Below, one piece after another: positions 8,150 through 61,926 of a stretch of 64,000 bases of DNA. This stretch comes from Alphaproteobacteria bacterium (lineage in GTDB: Bacteria; Pseudomonadota; Alphaproteobacteria; UBA828), in assembly GCA_965221125.1 (NCBI GenBank), contig CBDCRW010000004.1, forward strand, positions 192,001-256,000, given 5' to 3'. Every line of letters begins with the position of its first letter. Within the stretch, counting starts at the first letter, position 1. Under the pieces are notes generated by a model. The model searched no databases, was not told the origin of the DNA, and saw nothing but the letters and a program-made list of their open reading frames with translations. Both the position numbers and the translations under genes were made by a program.

Positions 8150-8362
8150 ATGCTCCGCGAGACCAGCGCGCGACAGTCACTTGCCGAGGACGTTCAGACC
8201 CGTGCGCGGGCGGGCGGACTCGCGCTGGACGCGAAGCGGGCCGCTGCGCTCGCACCCATATGCGACGCGCTCGCAGAAGCCGACCGCCGCCTCCGCGCTC
8301 TGCGGATGATCGAGAGTGCCGCTGCTGGTCCGCCTTGGGGGCAGGAAGAGCGCGATGGCTGA
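8150..8362 (+). CDS. Small (70 aa) helical protein overlapping the amidase start; possible GatC/AtzG-like amidase partner
   Basis: GGAGG upstream; stop overlaps amidase ATG region; AGGLALDAKRAAALAP pattern. Confidence 0.5.
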   Translation: MLRETSARQSLAEDVQTRARAGGLALDAKRAAALAPICDALAEADRRLRALRMIESAAAGPPWGQEERDG

Positions 8363-9731
8363 CGCTGACGCCTTCCGCTCCATCGAATCACTCGGCGCGG
8401 ACTACCGCCGCGGCGCGCTGACTCCGACTGCGGTCGCGGAAACCTGCCTGGCGCGGATCGAGCGCTACGACGGCCCGCTCAACGCCATCGTCCCCGGCCT
8501 CGCCGACGAGGCCGGCGCCGAGGCCGCGAGGGCCGGGGAGGAACTGGCGGCCGGCCATGATCGCGGCCCTCTCCACGGCATCCCCATCGGCATCAAGGAC
8601 CTTGTCGATATCGCCGGCACGGTCACCGGCTTCGGCTCCGATCCCGTGTTTGCCGCCCGCGCCGCGCGGGACGCCGCCATGATTGCACACCTGCGCGCAG
8701 CGGGCGCCGTCCTGGTCGCCAAGACCAACCTGCTCGAATTCGCCTACGGCGCGGTCAATCCCCGGGTGGGGCAGACCAACAACCCGTGGGATGAGGCCCG
8801 CACCGCCGGCGGCTCCAGCGGCGGCTCGGCGGCGGCCGTCGCCGCCGGCCTCTGCCATGCGGCCGTTGGCACCGATACCGGCGGCTCGATCCGCATCCCC
8901 GCCGCCTATTGCGGCGTGGTAGGGCTGAAGCCGACCCATGGCCTCGTGCCGCTCGCGGGCGTCTCGATGCTCTCCTGGTCCCTCGATCACGCCGGGCCGA
9001 TGGCGCGGAGCTGCGCCGATGCGGCGGCGCTGCTCGGCGGGCTTACGGGCACGACTGTCGACGCGAGGCCGCAACCGCTCCGCGGCCTCCGTTTCGGCCT
9101 CATCGCGGCGCTCAGGGACGACGACGCCACCACGCCCGGCGTTCGCGCCGGCATGGAGGACGCCTGCGCCGCCTTACGCGATGCGGGCGCTGCCGTGGAG
9201 GAGGTCGAGATCGAGGGGCTCTCGGAATCGGCCGAGGCCCTGCTTCACGTGCTGCTGCCGGAGACGAGCGTGATCCTCGGGCATCTTCTCGACGAGCACC
9301 CCGAAGCGCTGGCGGAGCAGACCCGCGCGCAGCTGGAGCTCGGCTTCGCGCTGCCGGCCACCGCACACGTCCGCGCGCAGCAGTTCCGGCGCTTCCTCGG
9401 CCAGCGCTTCCTGGACCAGCTTGCGCGCTACGACGTTCTGCTCTCGCCGGGCGTCCCATGGGAGGCGCCGCCGGAGGATCCGGCAATCGACGGCGCGGAG
9501 GGCTACGGCGAGATGCTGTGCAGCGCGCCCACCAACCTCTGCGGCCTGCCGAGTCTCGTCCTCCCCTGCGGGCGGGGGGAGGGCGGCATGCCCGTGAGCC
9601 TGCAGCTCATCGGCCCGCCCCACAGCGACGATCGCCTGCTTCAGATCGGCGCGGCGCTCGAGCCCGCGTTCCCGCTCGGACCGCCGCCCGGATACGGCGC
9701 GTCGCTGTCGGCGGCGGAGGGTTTCGGGTAG
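8355..9731 (+). CDS. Amidase-signature family amidohydrolase
   Basis: [35 protein letters not shown] (Ser-cisSer-Lys triad); start placed at ATG 8355 after AGGAAG. Confidence 0.92.
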
Positions 9732-9906
9732 AGCGCGTCCGTCATAGACGGACGCGCGACAGGCCGCGACCGCGGCCCGCCGCGAATGCGGCGCGCCCGC
9801 GCAGGCGCCGGTCGTCGCGCCGATAGGCGCGCGCAAGCGCACGACGACCGGCTGCCGTGAGCGACAAGGACTCGGAGCGTTTCCGTGTGAGACGGAAACG
9901 CTCTAG
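9729..9906 (+). repeat. Dispersed multi-hairpin intergenic element, copy 1 (with internal insertion and terminal palindrome)
   Basis: Aligns by eye with 15335-15483 and with the reverse complement of 61124-61234; begins TAGAGCG, ends CGCTCTAG. Confidence 0.88.
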
Positions 9907-13819: not shown

Positions 13820-15337
13820 ATGTTGGGTAAACCTGCACACTTCCTCGTCGCGTTCCTGTTGGCGGCGGGCTTCATGGTCGAGGCGGCACTGGCCGAGAGC
13901 GTGTTCCGGCTCGGCAGGGAGGCCGACGCCAAGGCGCTCGATCCGCCGCTGACGATCGAGAACCTCGACATCTGGACCATGAACAACATCAACGCGTACC
14001 TGGTCCGCGCGACCAAGAACGCCGATGACATCGAGCCCGATCTGGCGACGCACTGGGATATTTCCGAGGACGGCCTGACCTACACGTTCCATCTGCGTGA
14101 GGCCATGTTCTCCGACGGCTCGCCGGTCACCGCGCAGGACGCCAAGTTCAGTATCGAGCGTGCGCGCGACCACGAGCTCGCAACCCAGGCGGCGCTCTAC
14201 CAGAACATCGCGTCGGTCGAGACGCCGGACGACCGCACGGTCGTGTTTACGCTCAAGGAGCCGTCGGCGCCGTTCCTTTCGATCCTCGCCATGTTCCCGG
14301 CCTCGATCCTGCCGCAGGCGGCGGTCGAGGAGCGGGGCGAGGACTTCGGCAGCAGCCCGGTGGGCGCCGGCGCCTTCCGCCTCAGTGAGTGGCGGCGCGG
14401 CGAGGTCATCGTCCTCGAGCGCAACCCCCACTACTGGGAGGAGGGACTGCCGCTGGTCGACCGGGTCGAGTGGCACGTCGTCTCGGAGGACAACACGCGG
14501 ATACTCAAGGTCCAGGCCGGCGAGCTGGACGCGGCGCTGTTCGTTCCCTTCAACCGCATCGCCGAGCTCGAGGCCAATCCCGACATCCAGATGATCCTCG
14601 ATCCCTCCAGCAAGACCGATCACCTGCTGCCCAACCACGCCAAGCCGCCGCTGGACAACCTGAATGTCCGCAAGGCGATCAGGTTGGCCATCGACTCCCA
14701 GGCCATCATCGACGTGGTGACCTTCGGCTACGCCACGCCGGCCAACACGTTCCTGTCCGCCGGCATGATGCACCACGACGGCGATGCGCCGCTGCCCGCC
14801 TACGATCCCGAGGAGGCCAAGGCCATGCTGGAGGCCGAAGGCGCGACCGGAACGACGCTCGGGCTCACGATTCAGGCAGGCAACCGGGTCGACGAGCAGA
14901 TATCCGTGCTGCTCCAGCAGCAGCTCGCGGAGGTCGGCATCACCATCGACATCAGGAAGGTCGATCCCAGCCAGTGGATCAATTTCCTGATCGAGGGCGA
15001 CTACGATCTCGGCACCGTCTACTGGACCAACGACATCATCGACCCGGACCAGAAGACGGCGTTCACCCTGATCGGGGACGACAACCGCAATTTCTTCAGT
15101 AACTGGACGTCACCCCCGGAGGTCACGGAACTCGTCAAGCAGGCGCGGGTCGAGCAGGACTTCGAAGAGCGCAGCGCTCTGTACGCTGCGCTGCAAATGA
15201 TCGCCAACGACAACGAGGTCCTCTACAGTCTGTACAACAGCCCCTTCCGCAACATCGCGCGCTCCTGCGTGCAGGGCTTCTTCCAGAGCCCGCTCGGCCG
15301 TGTCGACCTGGAACACGTCGACATGTCCGGCTGCTAG
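13820..15337 (+). CDS. Dpp/Opp family substrate-binding protein (SBP family 5)
   Basis: Signal peptide, EPDLATHWDISEDGLTYTFHLR, FSDGSPVTAQD, PVGAGAF. Confidence 0.93.
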   Translation: MLGKPAHFLVAFLLAAGFMVEAALAESVFRLGREADAKALDPPLTIENLDIWTMNNINAYLVRATKNADDIEPDLATHWDISEDGLTYTFHLREAMFSDGSPVTAQDAKFSIERARDHELATQAALYQNIASVETPDDRTVVFTLKEPSAPFLSILAMFPASILPQAAVEERGEDFGSSPVGAGAFRLSEWRRGEVIVLERNPHYWEEGLPLVDRVEWHVVSEDNTRILKVQAGELDAALFVPFNRIAELEANPDIQMILDPSSKTDHLLPNHAKPPLDNLNVRKAIRLAIDSQAIIDVVTFGYATPANTFLSAGMMHHDGDAPLPAYDPEEAKAMLEAEGATGTTLGLTIQAGNRVDEQISVLLQQQLAEVGITIDIRKVDPSQWINFLIEGDYDLGTVYWTNDIIDPDQKTAFTLIGDDNRNFFSNWTSPPEVTELVKQARVEQDFEERSALYAALQMIANDNEVLYSLYNSPFRNIARSCVQGFFQSPLGRVDLEHVDMSGC

Positions 15338-15483
15338 AGCGCGTCCGTCATTGACGGGCGCGCGACAGGCCGTGACAGCGGCCCGCCGCGAATGCGGCGC
15401 CCTCGCGGAGGCGCCGGTCGAAGACCGGCTGCCGTGAGCGATAAACTGTTGGAGCGGTTCCGTCTTGGAAGGAAATTCTCCAG
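15335..15483 (+). repeat. Dispersed multi-hairpin intergenic element, copy 2
   Basis: tagagcgcgtccgtcattgacgggcgcgcgacaggcc...ccggctgccgtgagcgataaa, followed by a degenerate terminal palindrome. Confidence 0.88.
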
Positions 15484-15599
15484 CGGTCGTTTGTCACTAA
15501 GCGGGGCGTCCTCCGGGGCGCCCCGCACCGTCCTCGGCCCGTAGCGTCCGAACGGAGGACACCCGCGCCGCGCGTCGGCGAGACGAGGAGGGCAGGCCC

Positions 15600-60048: not shown

Positions 60049-61119
60049 ATGGCCAGCAACAGCTTCGGCCTGCTCTTCCGCGTCACCACCTGGGGCGAGA
60101 GCCACGGGCCGGCCATAGGCTGCGTCGTCGATGGCGTGCCGCCGCGTATTCCGCTTGCCGAGTCCGACATCCAGCCCGCGCTCGACCGGCGCCGGCCCGG
60201 CACGTCCCGCTTCGTGACCCAGCGGCGCGAATCCGACACCGTGCGCATTCTCTCCGGCGTGTTCGAGGGCCGGACCACCGGCACGCCCATCGCGCTCGTG
60301 ATCGAGAACGAGGACGCGCGCAGCCGCGACTACGGCCCGATCAAGGACACCTATCGCCCCGGCCACGCCGACTTCACCTACGACGCGAAGTACGGCATCC
60401 GCGATTACCGGGGCGGCGGGCGGGCCAGCGCGCGGGAGACCGCGATGCGCGTGGCGGCCGGCGCCATCGCGCAGAAGATCCTGGGCGCGGGCGTGACGAT
60501 CCGGGGCGCCGTCATCCAGGTCGGCGGGATTGCCGTCGAGCGCGCACGCTGGGACTGGGCGGAGACCGCGCGCAATCCCTTCTTCTGCCCCGATGCCGAG
60601 ACGGTGCCGCAATGGGAAGACGCGCTCGATGCGGCGCGCAAGGCCGGCACCTCCTTGGGCGCCATCATCGAGGTGGAAGCCGGCGGCGTGCCGGCGGGGC
60701 TGGGCGCGCCGGTCTACGGCAAGATCGACGCCGACCTCGCCGCCGGCATGGTCGGCATCAACGCGGTCAAGGGCGTCGAGATCGGCGCCGGCTTCGCCGC
60801 CGCAGCCTTGGGCGGGGACGAGAACGGCGACGAGATCCGCATGGAAGGGGGCAAGCCGACGTTCCTCACCAACAACGCGGGCGGCGTACTCGGCGGCATC
60901 ACCACCGGCCAGCCGGTCCTGGTCCGCTTCGTGGTCAAGCCCACCAGCTCCATCCGCACGCCCCGCCGCACGATCACGCGGGACGGAACCGAGACCGAGG
61001 TCTCGACTGAAGGCCGGCACGATCCCTGCGTCGGCATCCGCGCGGTGCCGGTGGGCGAGGCGATGATGGCCTGCGTGTTCGCCGACCACCTGCTGCGCCA
61101 CCGCGCCCAGTGCGGTTGA
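60049..61119 (+). CDS. aroC: Chorismate synthase
   Basis: [40 protein letters not shown]. Confidence 0.97.
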
Positions 61120-61123
61120 GAAA

Positions 61124-61234
61124 TTTGTCGCTCACGGCAGCCGGCTTGCAGCCGGCGCCTCCGCGAGGGCGCCGCATTCGCGGCGGGCCGCTGTCGCGGC
61201 CTGTCGCGAGCCCGCCCAAGACGGGCTCGCTCTA
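61124..61234 (-). repeat. Dispersed multi-hairpin intergenic element, copy 3 (inverted, lacks terminal palindrome)
   Basis: Reverse complement reads tagagcgagcccgtcttgggcgggctcgcgacaggccgcgacagcggcccgccgcgaatgcggcgccctcgcggaggcgccggctgcaagccggctgccgtgagcgacaaa. Confidence 0.88.
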
Positions 61235-61271
61235 AGCTACCGCACGCAAATCATCGCCAGGGGAGAGAGCC

Positions 61272-61862
61272 ATGCCGGCCAAGCGAGCGCCGCGCAAAGC
61301 GGATCGCGTCCACGCGCTGCGCCTTCCGGATCAGCGCAGCAACACGCCCGAGATCCGCGCCGTCTTCGCGCGCTGCCTGGAGAAGATCGGCTTCGTGCCG
61401 AACGTGCTCCGCTCCTACACGCTCCGGCCCCGCAAGTTCGAGCTGTTCCGCACGTACAACAACGAGCTGATGCTGGGCGACTCCGGCCTCTCCCCCCTGG
61501 AGCGGGAGATGATCGCCGTCGTCGTCTCCTGCGTGAACCACTGCCACTACTGCCTGGTGGCCCACGGCGCGCAGGTGCGCGTCCTCGCAGGCGACCCGGT
61601 GCTCGGCGACCAGCTCGTCGCGAACTACCGCGCGGCGCCGCTCTCGAAGCGCCAGCGCGCGATGCTGGATTTCACCTGGAAGCTCAGCGAGAGCCCGGAT
61701 TCCGTGGGCGATCCCGACCGCGCGGCGCTCAGGAAGGCCGGCTTCGGCGACGAGGACATCTTCGACATCGCCGAGGTCGCGGGCTTCTACAACATGACCA
61801 ACCGGCTCGCCGCCGCCATCGACATGCGCCCCAACCGCGAATACTACGGCATGGGGCGCTGA
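61272..61862 (+). CDS. AhpD/CMD family peroxidase-related enzyme
   Basis: EKIGFVPNV, EREMIAVVVSCVNHCHYCLVAHG, YNMTNRLA. Confidence 0.9.
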   Translation: MPAKRAPRKADRVHALRLPDQRSNTPEIRAVFARCLEKIGFVPNVLRSYTLRPRKFELFRTYNNELMLGDSGLSPLEREMIAVVVSCVNHCHYCLVAHGAQVRVLAGDPVLGDQLVANYRAAPLSKRQRAMLDFTWKLSESPDSVGDPDRAALRKAGFGDEDIFDIAEVAGFYNMTNRLAAAIDMRPNREYYGMGR

Positions 61863-61926
61863 GGGATGCAAAGGGCCAGCCCCGGTGACGGGACAGGCCC
61901 CCTAGCTTCTCGGCATTTGTTTCCAA

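Follow-up and report, generated by a model that had tools for sequence, protein, structure and literature searches.

The three repeats found in the window (the whole 64-kb stretch of DNA analysed here) are very probably copies of one small, non-coding MITE of the IS630 type, which inserts at TA dinucleotides and is present in about 100 copies per genome. The family is small, multi-copy and dispersed, and carries no transposase gene; it is labelled non-coding because of its size and not because of stop codons, many copies having a reading frame that is open from end to end. The family is probably a new one of an already known kind, the TA-inserting MITE; the CIR, RIME and Sm repeats were compared with it mainly by description. 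It is unusual only in a multi-hairpin middle that is kept across distant Alphaproteobacteria. Its hosts are uncultured alphaproteobacteria associated with sponge metagenomes. The features of the window are the following.

9729-9905, + strand: copy 1, long form of 177 nt (covariance model, E = 4e-34, 144.7 bits)
9729-9730, + strand: left TA of copy 1, target-site duplication (sequence of the empty orthologous sites: GGG TA GAGTGA)
9731-9903, + strand: element proper of copy 1, long form of 173 nt, GAGCGCGTCCG...CGGAAACGCTC
9733-9757, + strand: hairpin 1 of copy 1, left terminal inverted repeat folded on its inner inverted copy, GCGCGTCCGTC ata GACGGACGCGC
9762-9793, + strand: hairpins 2 and 3 of copy 1, GGCCGC-gacc-GCGGCC and CGCCGC-gaat-GCGGCG
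9795-9802, + strand: mini-hairpin 4 of copy 1, G-C and C-G pairs around the loop CCGC
9804-9856, + strand: hairpin 5 of copy 1, lengthened by about 29 nt (long form)
9857-9874, + strand: conserved tail GTGAGCGACAA and variable linker of copy 1, with GACTC (a GANTC site) at 9869-9873
9873-9905, + strand: hairpin 6 of copy 1, inner inverted copy and right terminal inverted repeat, right TA at 9904-9905
15335-15482, + strand: copy 2, short form of 148 nt (covariance model, E = 5e-36, 152.4 bits)
61116-61234, - strand: copy 3, without hairpin 6 (covariance model, E = 1e-29, 126.8 bits)
8316-9731, + strand: amidase gene (PF01425, E = 7e-96), stop codon rebuilt by copy 1
13820-15337, + strand: solute-binding protein gene (SBP_bac_5), stop inside copy 2
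60049-61119, + strand: chorismate synthase gene, neighbour of copy 3

The original prediction had placed three related copies in this window, each at the 3' end of a gene, and the covariance model recovered all three there, adjoining the amidase, SBP_bac_5 and chorismate synthase genes. The left TA of copy 1 also supplies the T and A of the amidase stop codon TAG (9729-9731). The first three bases of copy 2 are the stop codon TAG (15335-15337) of the SBP_bac_5 gene; this copy is flanked by TA on the left and CA on the right, and its hairpin 6 is degenerate. The truncated end of copy 3 adjoins the chorismate synthase stop codon TGA (61117-61119), and the same truncated copy occupies this site in 5 of 19 genus genomes. 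The stem variants quoted from hairpin 1 (copy 1 versus copy 3) and hairpin 5 (copy 2 versus copy 3) are present, as are the G-T pair in hairpin 2 (copy 2), a hairpin 3 invariant among the three copies and the conserved tail GCTGCCGTGAGCGAYAA. The predicted core of five hairpins was correct as far as hairpins 1-5 are concerned, but it had taken in only part of a further, terminal hairpin, the sixth, in copies 1 and 2.

A search for further copies, which had been proposed as a check, gave 119 repeat matches in the 4.58-Mb genome (nhmmer), spread over all 7 contigs, and 74 of these are near full length. The recurrence of the three window copies throughout the genome is far beyond chance. The canonical repeat unit is 148 nt long and contains six hairpins, the element proper between the TA dinucleotides being 144 nt; in the long form these lengths are 177 and 173 nt, and 17 of the 74 copies are of this long type (173-179 nt). 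The terminal inverted repeats read GAGCG[C/T][G/T]TCCG. The left end of the family is TA GAGCGCGTCCG and the right end, reverse-complemented, TA GAGCGTTTCCG; each terminal inverted repeat folds on an inner inverted copy of itself, which gives hairpins 1 and 6. Elements are mosaic: some lack hairpin 6, some are of the long form, and one and the same core may carry different termini.

The statement that this is not a recognised family holds for Rfam: the gathering-threshold search of the 64-kb window returned no match, and E-value searches of the copies yielded only generic, sub-threshold alignments of GC-rich hairpins, the best being CC1840 (22 bits for a threshold of 50) and MH_s15 (19 bits for a threshold of 123). 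With the 148-nt unit, blastn found no match among the PLSDB plasmids. The family was described in none of the papers found in a literature search, and no searchable paper prints its core motifs, although supplementary files may list repeat sequences. Three other candidates were dropped: integron attC sites, as arrays are lacking and insertion involves no cassette; self-cleaving ribozymes and group II intron domains, as Rfam gives no match; and a peptide encoded by the core, as the stems change by compensation and not by synonymous change. Unless they are recognised as mobile elements, such copies risk being miscalled as small RNAs, terminators or gene extensions.

We then compared orthologous sites. 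These were located with protein queries, because the flanks are too diverged for a DNA-level search, in which flank queries matched only the repeat itself in sister genomes. At the site of copy 1, three sister genomes (G020, G009 and G004) read ...TTCGGG TA GAGTGA, where the filled site reads ...TTCGGG TA[GAGCG...CGCTC]TA GAGTGA. In addition, a metagenome DNA contig of 2439 nt (run X7, ~97% identical) joins position 9728 directly to position 9904. Copy 1 is thus a precise insertion into the TAG stop codon of the amidase gene, with duplication of the TA; the test on empty orthologous sites suggested with the original prediction gave a precise absence in four records, three genomes and one contig. 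Copy 2 is also absent from the orthologous site of the same three genomes. Its right junction, at the TA...CA end, is not fixed by the empty sites, which differ among relatives. Copies 1 and 2 are both lineage-specific insertions. Moreover, 13 further sites are filled in relatives and empty here; six of them show a clean TA junction (L003, L054, L032, L029, L004 and L033) and the remaining seven are too diverged to be read. Copies of the family mark insertion polymorphisms at the level of the strain. In the flanks of the 74 copies, a pyrimidine precedes the insertion site (-1) in 65 and a purine follows it (+1) in 64, while TA is found at both ends of only 15. Insertion would take place at TA, preferably within YTAR, and would duplicate the TA.

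The termini (TA|GAGCG..TCCG) resemble the ends of IS630-family elements of about 1.05 kb carried by sister species. The best of these ends, from elements in L073 and L070, share 17 of 20 bases with the right end of the MITE. The L073 element (L073:1387-2436) is 1050 bp long and bounded by TA|GAGCGTATCCG...CGGATACGCTC|TA, and its ORFs match NF033545 (IS630 family; E = 2e-40 and 8e-18); similar elements of about 1050 bp were found in L070, L076, L079 and L080. By the likeness of these ends, an IS630-family transposase supplied in trans would excise the element and reinsert it at another TA. The DDE_3 domain of this transposase family is present in 16 of 20 sister genomes. Two complete sister genomes (G016 and G017) carry neither the MITE nor DDE_3, so the element is dispensable. 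Within the present assembly, which is 92% complete, we found no DDE_3 match and no element of about 1.05 kb with TA|GAGC(G/A)..TCCG ends. That DDE_3 is missing here, yet copies 1 and 2 are lineage-specific, is an observation that counts against a MITE, as are the lack of clear inverted repeats at the termini in some distant families, the small share of copies with TA at both ends and the TA...CA flanks of copy 2.

The original prediction had left two routes of spread open, and the MITE route is the one supported by the precise, TA-flanked insertion polymorphism and the IS630-like termini. The other, a REP/BIME-like system in which a REP-associated tyrosine (Y1/HUH) transposase acts on single-stranded hairpins, is now very improbable. 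Such a system would account for the hairpins at both element ends, for six solo hairpin units lying outside elements and for the mosaic build described above. Copies also lean weakly to one orientation with respect to local GC skew (63:32 for 50 kb, 61:34 for 25 kb and 55:40 for 10 kb), which such a system would fit, but GC skew is uninformative on strand in this genome because genes are split 1749:1770. The termini match IS630-family ends, and the TA is duplicated at empty sites, whereas no target duplication is expected of a REP/BIME system; nor is the strand asymmetry of mismatches robust, although strand-specific hairpins would be expected. We reject it because no Y1_Tnp domain (PF01797) of the Y1/RAYT type was found in any of the 21 genus genomes, the positive control being matched in six named genomes.

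Insertion into stop codons is not restricted to the window. Among 95 copies, the stop codon of an upstream gene falls exactly on the left TA(G) in 29 (TAG in 26), that of a convergent gene falls on the right end in 28 (TAG in 24), and 53 adjoin the stop codon of at least one flanking gene. With G as its first base and C as its last, the element shows TAG at either junction when this is read inwards; the upstream protein is therefore left unchanged when a copy enters, in either orientation, the TA of a TAA or TAG stop. The crude expectation for stop overlap among non-disruptive sites, which is based on our own calls of only ~3500 genes, is 8% for any TA, 18% for YTAR and 29% for CTAG. The excess over the CTAG expectation may be small, and for this reason we claim no targeting beyond the YTAR preference and purifying selection. 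As for the cause of this bias, we suggest that copies would accumulate on stop codons as harmless TA sites are scarce in a genome of 69% G+C. The family provides a clean example of a TA-specific element that stays harmless in a GC-rich genome by rebuilding TAG from either end.

The stem covariation noticed in three copies extends to the whole family. Changes on both sides were found for 21 of 49 base pairs (116 cells), with 95.9% of cells paired; none of 500 shuffles reached this level of double changes, and controls in which the pairing was slid left only 33-47% paired. Double changes affect 5 of 11 pairs in helix 1 and 6 of 10 in helix 5, and, of 62 sequences, 34 have C-G and 28 have G-C at the hairpin 4 pair formed by columns 68/75. 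Hairpins 2 and 3 are nearly invariant in the genus and are the most conserved part of the family (conservation of 0.956 and 0.961 over 62 copies, with the linker at 0.45). For a MITE it is unusual that conservation should be higher in the interior than at the termini, and this is counted against that assignment. The interior, i.e. hairpins 2-5 and the tail GUGAGCGA, is kept in sequence and in pairing beyond what transposition should need. We take this as a constraint on the folded strand (RNA or DNA), or as the effect of a process that restores pairing at the DNA level. The claim that structure is under selection is retained for the conservation of structure but not for its cause, since hairpin-templated correction or gene conversion could give the same pattern.

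Covariation also reaches bases that come from the host. Columns 120 and 151 (inner arm of hairpin 6 and right end) combine as A-T in 41 copies, G-C in 10, G-T in 3 and A-C in 2 (Fisher, 5e-7); at the right-end dinucleotide, G-C is found in 10 of 13 copies with an inner G and A-T in 41 of 47 with an inner A. At columns 119 and 152, C-G occurs 6 times versus 14 for C-A, and T-A 29 times versus 1 for T-G (p = 0.012). The host-derived TA bases thus change in step with the inner arm of hairpin 6, and a model of pure TA duplication then needs changes after insertion.

Hairpin-templated correction is a mechanism familiar from the literature on quasi-palindrome mutation. It is possible, though we hold it only tentatively, that the compensatory pattern arises in this way at the DNA level, by templated correction of quasi-palindromes (through a switch of template or the correction of mismatches within extruded hairpins) together with gene conversion among the ~100 copies, keeping arms complementary and the core uniform with no selection on function. 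The right-end TA bases, which have changed to pair with the inner arm and must have done so in place, argue for it; since these bases are host-derived, the correction events would date from after insertion. Moreover, at the orthologous chorismate synthase site hairpin 5 takes forms that also occur in paralogues, as gene conversion predicts, and the orientation of elements is not biased with respect to flanking genes. Paired arms are accounted for by templated correction; the conserved loops and joints are not, nor is a core that recurs across families with different termini. If it is at work, the family is a natural record of a mutational process.

Evidence from distant genomes bears on the same question. 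Core matches were found in 9 of 150 other alphaproteobacterial families, true distant members scoring 43-97 bits. In these families, compensatory changes affect hairpins 2, 3 and 5 and the pair 78/99, while the motifs of loops and joints (GCGACnGC, CCCnCGCGGAG and CGUGAGCGA) are unchanged and the terminal hairpins differ. The interior is thus of note in being conserved above the transposase-binding ends, in covarying and in recurring elsewhere between different termini. Such constant loops and joints between compensating stems could mean that the core (hairpins 2-5 and the tail) is a functional structured module carried as cargo by the MITE, most likely a 3'-UTR RNA, and kept by selection on folding; it might act as a protector of mRNA ends, an insulator or a protein-binding site. 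This suggestion, which adds to the MITE and does not replace it, is a possible one that we put forward with limited confidence. It agrees with the double changes beyond all shuffles and with the contrast between hairpins 2 and 3 and the linker. In addition, five species show much stronger conservation of the orthologous copy next to chorismate synthase than of the adjoining intergenic DNA, and for L082 either strand folds much better than shuffled sequences do (z = -7.0 and -5.9).

Orientation speaks against an RNA role: among the 95 copies, a gene 3' end lies on the sense side of 60 and on the antisense side of 51, and tandem gene pairs are split 22 sense to 16 antisense. Nor does any Rfam family match, and the absence of the element from two complete sister genomes, which makes it dispensable, also speaks against such a role. 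Two alignments show an excess of G-U over A-C mismatches (61:36 and 92:50), but it is not robust, the ratio being 54:58 in 81 of the genome's own copies; as its result depends on the alignment, we rejected this comparison as a strand test. Split by transcriptional context, the mismatches number 25:23 in sense-only and 8:15 in antisense-only copies (Fisher p = 0.21). If the conservation of the interior does reflect function, it would be a widespread structured module that comes with a ready-made natural mutagenesis series.

A wider scenario, which we regard as unlikely, combines these elements: the ~75-nt core would be a functional structured nucleic acid, most likely a 3'-UTR RNA, that TA-inserting MITEs have carried as cargo through the Alphaproteobacteria, with terminal hairpins exchanged to fit local IS630-type transposases and pairing actively restored after insertion even with host-derived bases. 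In this family, bacteria would then have their counterpart of SINE-like elements that carry a payload.

Finally, we compared the family with described repeats. The CIR repeats of Caulobacter and Brucella were reportedly described by Chen and Shapiro in 2003. It is doubtful that the MITE found here is a member or close relative of CIR1-4 or of the rhizobial RIME, Sm-repeat and AB/C palindromes. According to the passages of a review that deal with them, CIRs are about 110 bp long, with TA at their termini, a stem-loop in each of the 5' and 3' sections and a conserved GANTC, and are highly conserved between alphaproteobacterial species (PMC2229807). The TA ends, the terminal hairpins, a GANTC at a fixed tail position in 27 of 74 copies and a core shared across families all recall them here. 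However, GANTC is missing from the other 47 copies, and the same passages give CIRs two long arms and a linker, no TIR and an unknown TSD (PMC2229807), against six short hairpins, four of them lying between the terminal ones, a comparison made by description only. As another source puts it in the part concerned, CIR and rhizobial repeats are intergenic and conserved in sequence and structure, with unknown function (PMC2573895); being alphaproteobacterial and about 100-150 bp long, they share these general traits with our family. Sinorhizobial kinship might be suspected from S. meliloti pSymB, which has hairpins with a near-identical terminal sequence (TAGAGCGTTTCAGTG, 7 matches versus 0 in the control). 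This replicon shares the terminal hairpin motif only and not the core, its best score being 25.9 bits against 43-97 for true distant members, and blastn with the 148-nt unit matched no plasmid record.

Elements of other bacteria offer likenesses of kind. RUP of pneumococcus is a MITE attributed to IS630-Spn1, and both RUP, as presented in the review, and our family are non-coding, 100-150 bp long, present in ~100 copies and inserted at TA with IS630-like terminal inverted repeats (PMC2229807). The entry on RUP gives no signature of structure or function beyond the inverted repeats (PMC2229807), whereas the family described here has six local hairpins, palindromic ends and an interior conserved with covariation across families; it also differs from RUP in that no cognate transposase was found in the genome. 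ERIC/IRU, which are likewise small TA-flanked repeats conserved across genera, would be the best analogue of a MITE with a conserved interior. In the section devoted to them, ERIC/IRU are co-transcribed with neighbouring genes and have a proposed role in mRNA stability (PMC2229807). Several short hairpins and the lack of an orientation bias set our family apart from ERIC, one long imperfect palindrome whose effect depends on orientation; the family bears no sequence relation to ERIC, as compared via Rfam only. The Correia/NEMIS elements of Neisseria are TA-duplicating MITEs too; their 24-bp inverted repeats, IHF site and RNase III processing are features of Correia that were not seen in this family. 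According to the review, the stem-loops formed by Correia/NEMIS transcripts affect neighbouring mRNAs (PMC2229807).

The three repeats of the window are copies of a real and abundant IS630-type MITE family, unlisted before as far as we searched. As originally predicted, these stretches are similar to each other over about 120-150 nt and contain the stem variants quoted for them. A covariance model of the element places them as follows.

9729-9905, + strand: copy 1, abutting the amidase gene (E = 4e-34)
15335-15482, + strand: copy 2, abutting the solute-binding protein (SBP_bac_5) gene (E = 5e-36)
61116-61234, - strand: copy 3, abutting the chorismate synthase gene (E = 1e-29)

The expected further copies were found in number: by iterated nhmmer over the whole source genome (G000; 4.58 Mb, 69% G+C, 7 contigs, 92% complete), we obtained 119 element matches, 74 of them near full length. 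Among these 74, 36 are exactly 148 nt long and 51 do not exceed 150 nt, 17 (the copy 1 type) have a long form of 173-179 nt in which about 29 extra nt lengthen hairpin H5, and 4 reach at least 180 nt. Two complete sister genomes, G016 and G017, gave zero element matches with both BLAST and the model, and the repeat signal is therefore not an artefact of composition. The copies of the source genome are mutually distant (36 copies; mean pairwise identity 0.837, maximum 0.926), which fits cut-and-paste movement or age. At G000:C5:586673-586719, a site filled by a complete copy in a relative (L036), there is only a 47-nt remnant of the H1 region, interpreted as a deletion derivative or else as a solo terminal hairpin.

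Parts of the element from left to right, with mean identity to the consensus in 62 copies
Left end and H1: TA, then GAGCGCGTCCGnC-ttt-GnCGGACGCGC; GACA joins H1 to H2
H2: GGCCGC-gacn-GCGGCC; 0.956
H3: CGCCGC-gaat-GCGGCG; 0.961
H4: mini-hairpin of two pairs
H5: GGC-GCCGGCC-gaa-GGCCGGC-t-GCC
Tail and linker: GTGAGCGAnAAA (tail, 0.927), then a 6-nt variable linker (0.45)
H6 and right end: TAGAGCGTTTCCGT-gcaaa-ACGGAAACGCTC, then TA; H6, 0.87
Flanking TAs: 0.72-0.73

The five hairpins first described are all present, and the unit has a sixth, H6, which forms its right terminus and is missing from copy 3. The ends are mutual inverted repeats, and each also folds onto an inner inverted copy; in the source genome, 6 solo terminal hairpins occur outside elements vs. 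56 inside. The two strands are each predicted to fold much more stably than dinucleotide shuffles, with z = -4.5 and -3.6 for copy 2, and z = -7.0 and -5.9 for a well-kept copy (L082).

Orthologues of the copy 1 site were sought in the genus with the 200 C-terminal residues of the amidase as query, and amidase orthologues were found in the sister genomes G020, G004 and G009. Empty orthologous sites, proposed earlier as a check, do exist: all three genomes read ...TTCGGG TA GAGTGA..., and the source genome reads ...TTCGGG TA [GAGCGCGTCCG...CGGAAACGCTC] TA GAGTGA.... Copy 1 is also absent from a 2439-nt contig of a metagenome DNA run (X7; flanks about 97% identical), where 9728 is joined straight to 9904. 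The duplicated TA belongs to the TAG stop codon of the amidase. A BLAST search in the source genome with the flanks of relatives' copies revealed 13 more sites, filled in the relative and empty in G000. Six of them (L003, L054, L032, L029, L004, L033) present a clean TA at the junction, with a perfect letter match on both sides for the L003 pair; the other seven (L014, L011, L035, L030, L048, L023, L024) are too diverged for the junction to be read. The element is mobile and duplicates TA when it inserts. Moreover, among the 74 near-full-length copies, a pyrimidine (C or T) precedes the left TA in 65 and a purine (G or A) follows the right TA in 64, so the target is YTAR. IS630 itself prefers CTAG and duplicates TA.

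We then considered the position of the insertions relative to genes, using coding frames inferred from third-position G+C around the 95 G000 copies of at least 100 nt. A co-directional gene ends at the left of 60 copies and a convergent gene at the right of 51; 29 copies lie between convergent genes, 38 inside tandem gene pairs (22 sense, 16 antisense) and 6 between divergent starts. The stop codon of the left gene is exactly the element TA and first G in 29 copies (26 TAG, 2 TAA, 1 TGA), the mirror case at the right end concerns 28 (24 TAG), and 53 of the 95 copies show at least one such overlap. As the element starts with G and ends with C, TAG is read inward at both junctions, and insertion into the TA of a TAA or TAG stop therefore spares the protein in either orientation. 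The overlap crudely expected from the supply of non-disruptive sites is 8% for TA, 18% for YTAR and 29% for CTAG. Target preference and purifying selection suffice to explain this habit; since the gene calls are incomplete, our claim is limited to that sufficiency. According to crude third-position-GC gene calls, TAG ends 1368 of 3519 genes (39%) in this genome, a high share for 69% G+C that may partly be a gene-caller artefact.

The original prediction had proposed, as an alternative to a structured 3'-UTR RNA, a mobile element of REP/BIME or MITE type. The MITE part holds, given the TA at empty sites; the REP/BIME-RAYT system is rejected, as Y1_Tnp was found in 0 of 21 genus genomes, with none in G000. 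The IS630-family domain DDE_3 was detected in 16 of 20 sister genomes. In L073 (1387-2436), an element of 1050 bp lies between two TA dinucleotides (TA, GAGCGTATCCG...CGGATACGCTC, TA) and carries a pair of ORFs adjoining at an A8 run, both matching the NCBIfam IS630-family model (E = 8e-18 and 2e-40). Elements resembling it, again about 1050 bp long and with TA and GAGC(A/G).. ends, are found in L070, L076, L079 and L080, the L070 element having at least 22 copies in its genome, G009. The L070 and L073 ends share 17 of 20 bases with the right end of the MITE, including a small subterminal hairpin (CCGTTTTAGACGG vs. CCGTTTTACACGG). Judging from these sequences, the mobiliser is likely an IS630-family transposase. 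DDE_3 is absent too from G016 and G017, both without the MITE, and was not found in G002, G010 and G000 (92% complete), which have it. Copies 1 and 2 are missing in the closest relatives, so the family moved recently in the G000 lineage; the transposase source may later have been lost, lie in the unassembled 8% or be external. In L076:1251-2456 (genome G006), an IS630-family element of about 1058 bp and a MITE copy (1251-1400) share the TA at 1399-1400, which closes the MITE and opens the IS630-family element; one of them has inserted at the flanking TA of the other.

Covariation of the stems, part of the original prediction, was confirmed on a six-helix structure in 62 aligned copies (alignment A2; 36 from G000, 26 from other species): 95.9% of cells are paired, 21 of 49 pairs show both-side changes (116 cells), and 0 of 500 shuffles attain any of five measures; slid controls are just 33-47% paired. 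Covariation concerns H1, H4, H5 and H6, with an H4 pair that is C-G in 34 sequences and G-C in 28, and double changes in 6 of 10 H5 pairs. H2 and H3 are near-invariant in the genus, hence uninformative there. The covariance model R1 was run beyond the genus on 150 other alphaproteobacterial families, each represented by a single genome, and matched in 9 (E <= 1e-5). In these, H2 (GGCCGC/GCGGCC) becomes GCCCGC/GCGGGC, AGCTGC/GCAGCT or GGTCGC/GCGACC, H3 (CGCCGC/GCGGCG) becomes CGGCGC/GCGCCG or CGCGCA/TGCGCG, and H5 and pair 78/99 are compensated as well, while the motifs GCGACnGC, CCCnCGCGGAG and CGTGAGCGA of loops and joints are unchanged. Their terminal hairpins differ (e.g. TAGACCATGATTG..CAATCATGGTCTA and TAGACCACTTTCGA). 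Conversely, hairpins on S. meliloti pSymB have a near-identical terminal sequence without the core: palindromic units at NC_003078 1670065-1670197 and 1000516-1000547 carry termini TAGAGCGTTTCAGTG, nearly those of the MITE right hairpin (7 motif matches vs. 0 in the reversed control), around a different interior. The family is thus mosaic, and a conserved core lies between exchangeable TA-flanked terminal hairpins.

Pairing is also maintained after insertion. Of 19 genus genomes compared at the chorismate synthase site, five (G000, G011, G005, G004, G002) share the same H6-less copy and 14 lack it (L161, which stops at a contig end, was left out). This copy is near-unchanged among the five and the adjoining intergenic DNA has diverged; its H5 differs by paired changes (CCGGCT/AGCCGG, CCGGCC/GGCCGG, CCAGCC/GGCTGG). 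Extra GC-rich hairpin segments were gained inside the element at different places in the orthologous copies L153 (G004) and L158 (G002), so long forms arise in place. Furthermore, the right-hand TA, newly made from host DNA at each insertion, covaries with the inner H6 arm. Its T is changed to C in 10 of 13 copies with inner base G, vs. only 2 of 47 with A; its A is changed to G in 6 of 22 copies with inner C (6 C-G, 14 C-A, 1 C-C, 1 C-T), vs. only 1 of 31 with inner T (29 T-A, 1 T-G, 1 T-T; Fisher p = 0.012 for 6:14 vs. 1:29). Pairing is therefore restored in place. Selection on a folded strand could do so, as could gene conversion among paralogues or hairpin-templated correction of quasi-palindromes.

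If a single strand were the folded one, G-T mismatches should outnumber A-C mismatches. The ratio is 61:36 in A2 and 92:50 in the model-fitted alignment A3 (29:5 for distant copies), and no excess appears in 81 G000 copies aligned by nhmmer (54:58); this signal is not robust. The 95 copies show no orientation bias relative to genes. RNA contigs from two metatranscriptome runs touch the locus and carry no transcript-end or strand information; the site is spanned in its empty form by one contig, and a second contig contains a copy from elsewhere. Elements tend to be oriented against the locally G-rich strand (63:32 over 50 kb, 61:34 over 25 kb, 55:40 over 10 kb), and genes show no link to it (1749:1770).

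No Rfam family fits the element, in agreement with the prediction that it is not a described one. For specialists, the interest lies in the interior, whose several hairpins form a covarying core. Its sequence is kept better than that of the transposase-binding ends; the core is common to lineages with different termini and has its pairing restored after insertion, even using host-derived bases. As described in PMC2229807, RUP, the IS630-Spn1-associated MITE, is similar in its TA target, inverted repeats resembling IS ends and about 100 copies, and for a TA-flanked repeat that keeps its interior, the best analogue is ERIC, for which an mRNA-stability effect is proposed. The same account gives CIR repeats about 110 bp, terminal TA, stem-loops in the 5' and 3' parts, a conserved GANTC and maintenance between species (PMC2229807), features that overlap with ours: GANTC, the CcrM methylation motif, stands at 9869-9873 directly 5' of H6, and at that one fixed position in 27 of 74 genome copies, in a subfamily reading AAAGAnTCAGAGCG where the other reads AAATTCATAGAGCG. 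A kinship with these alphaproteobacterial repeats, compared by description only, nevertheless seems rather unlikely. In a paper on rhizobial sRNAs (PMC2573895), intergenic repeats conserved in sequence and structure are described as common and of unknown function.

Two neighbouring features were also noted. At 61251-61871, two ORFs overlap on opposite strands: the one on the - strand lacks a Pfam match and is probably spurious, and the one on the + strand (61272-61862) has a ribosome-binding site and start (GGGGAGAGAGCC ATG) conserved in all sister genomes. Downstream of copy 2, a GC-rich hairpin at 15502-15528 (GCGGGGCGTCCTCCGGGGCGCCCCGC) is kept at the orthologous site of G020, G009 and G004, all without the MITE there, and probably represents a terminator-like hairpin native to the solute-binding protein gene.
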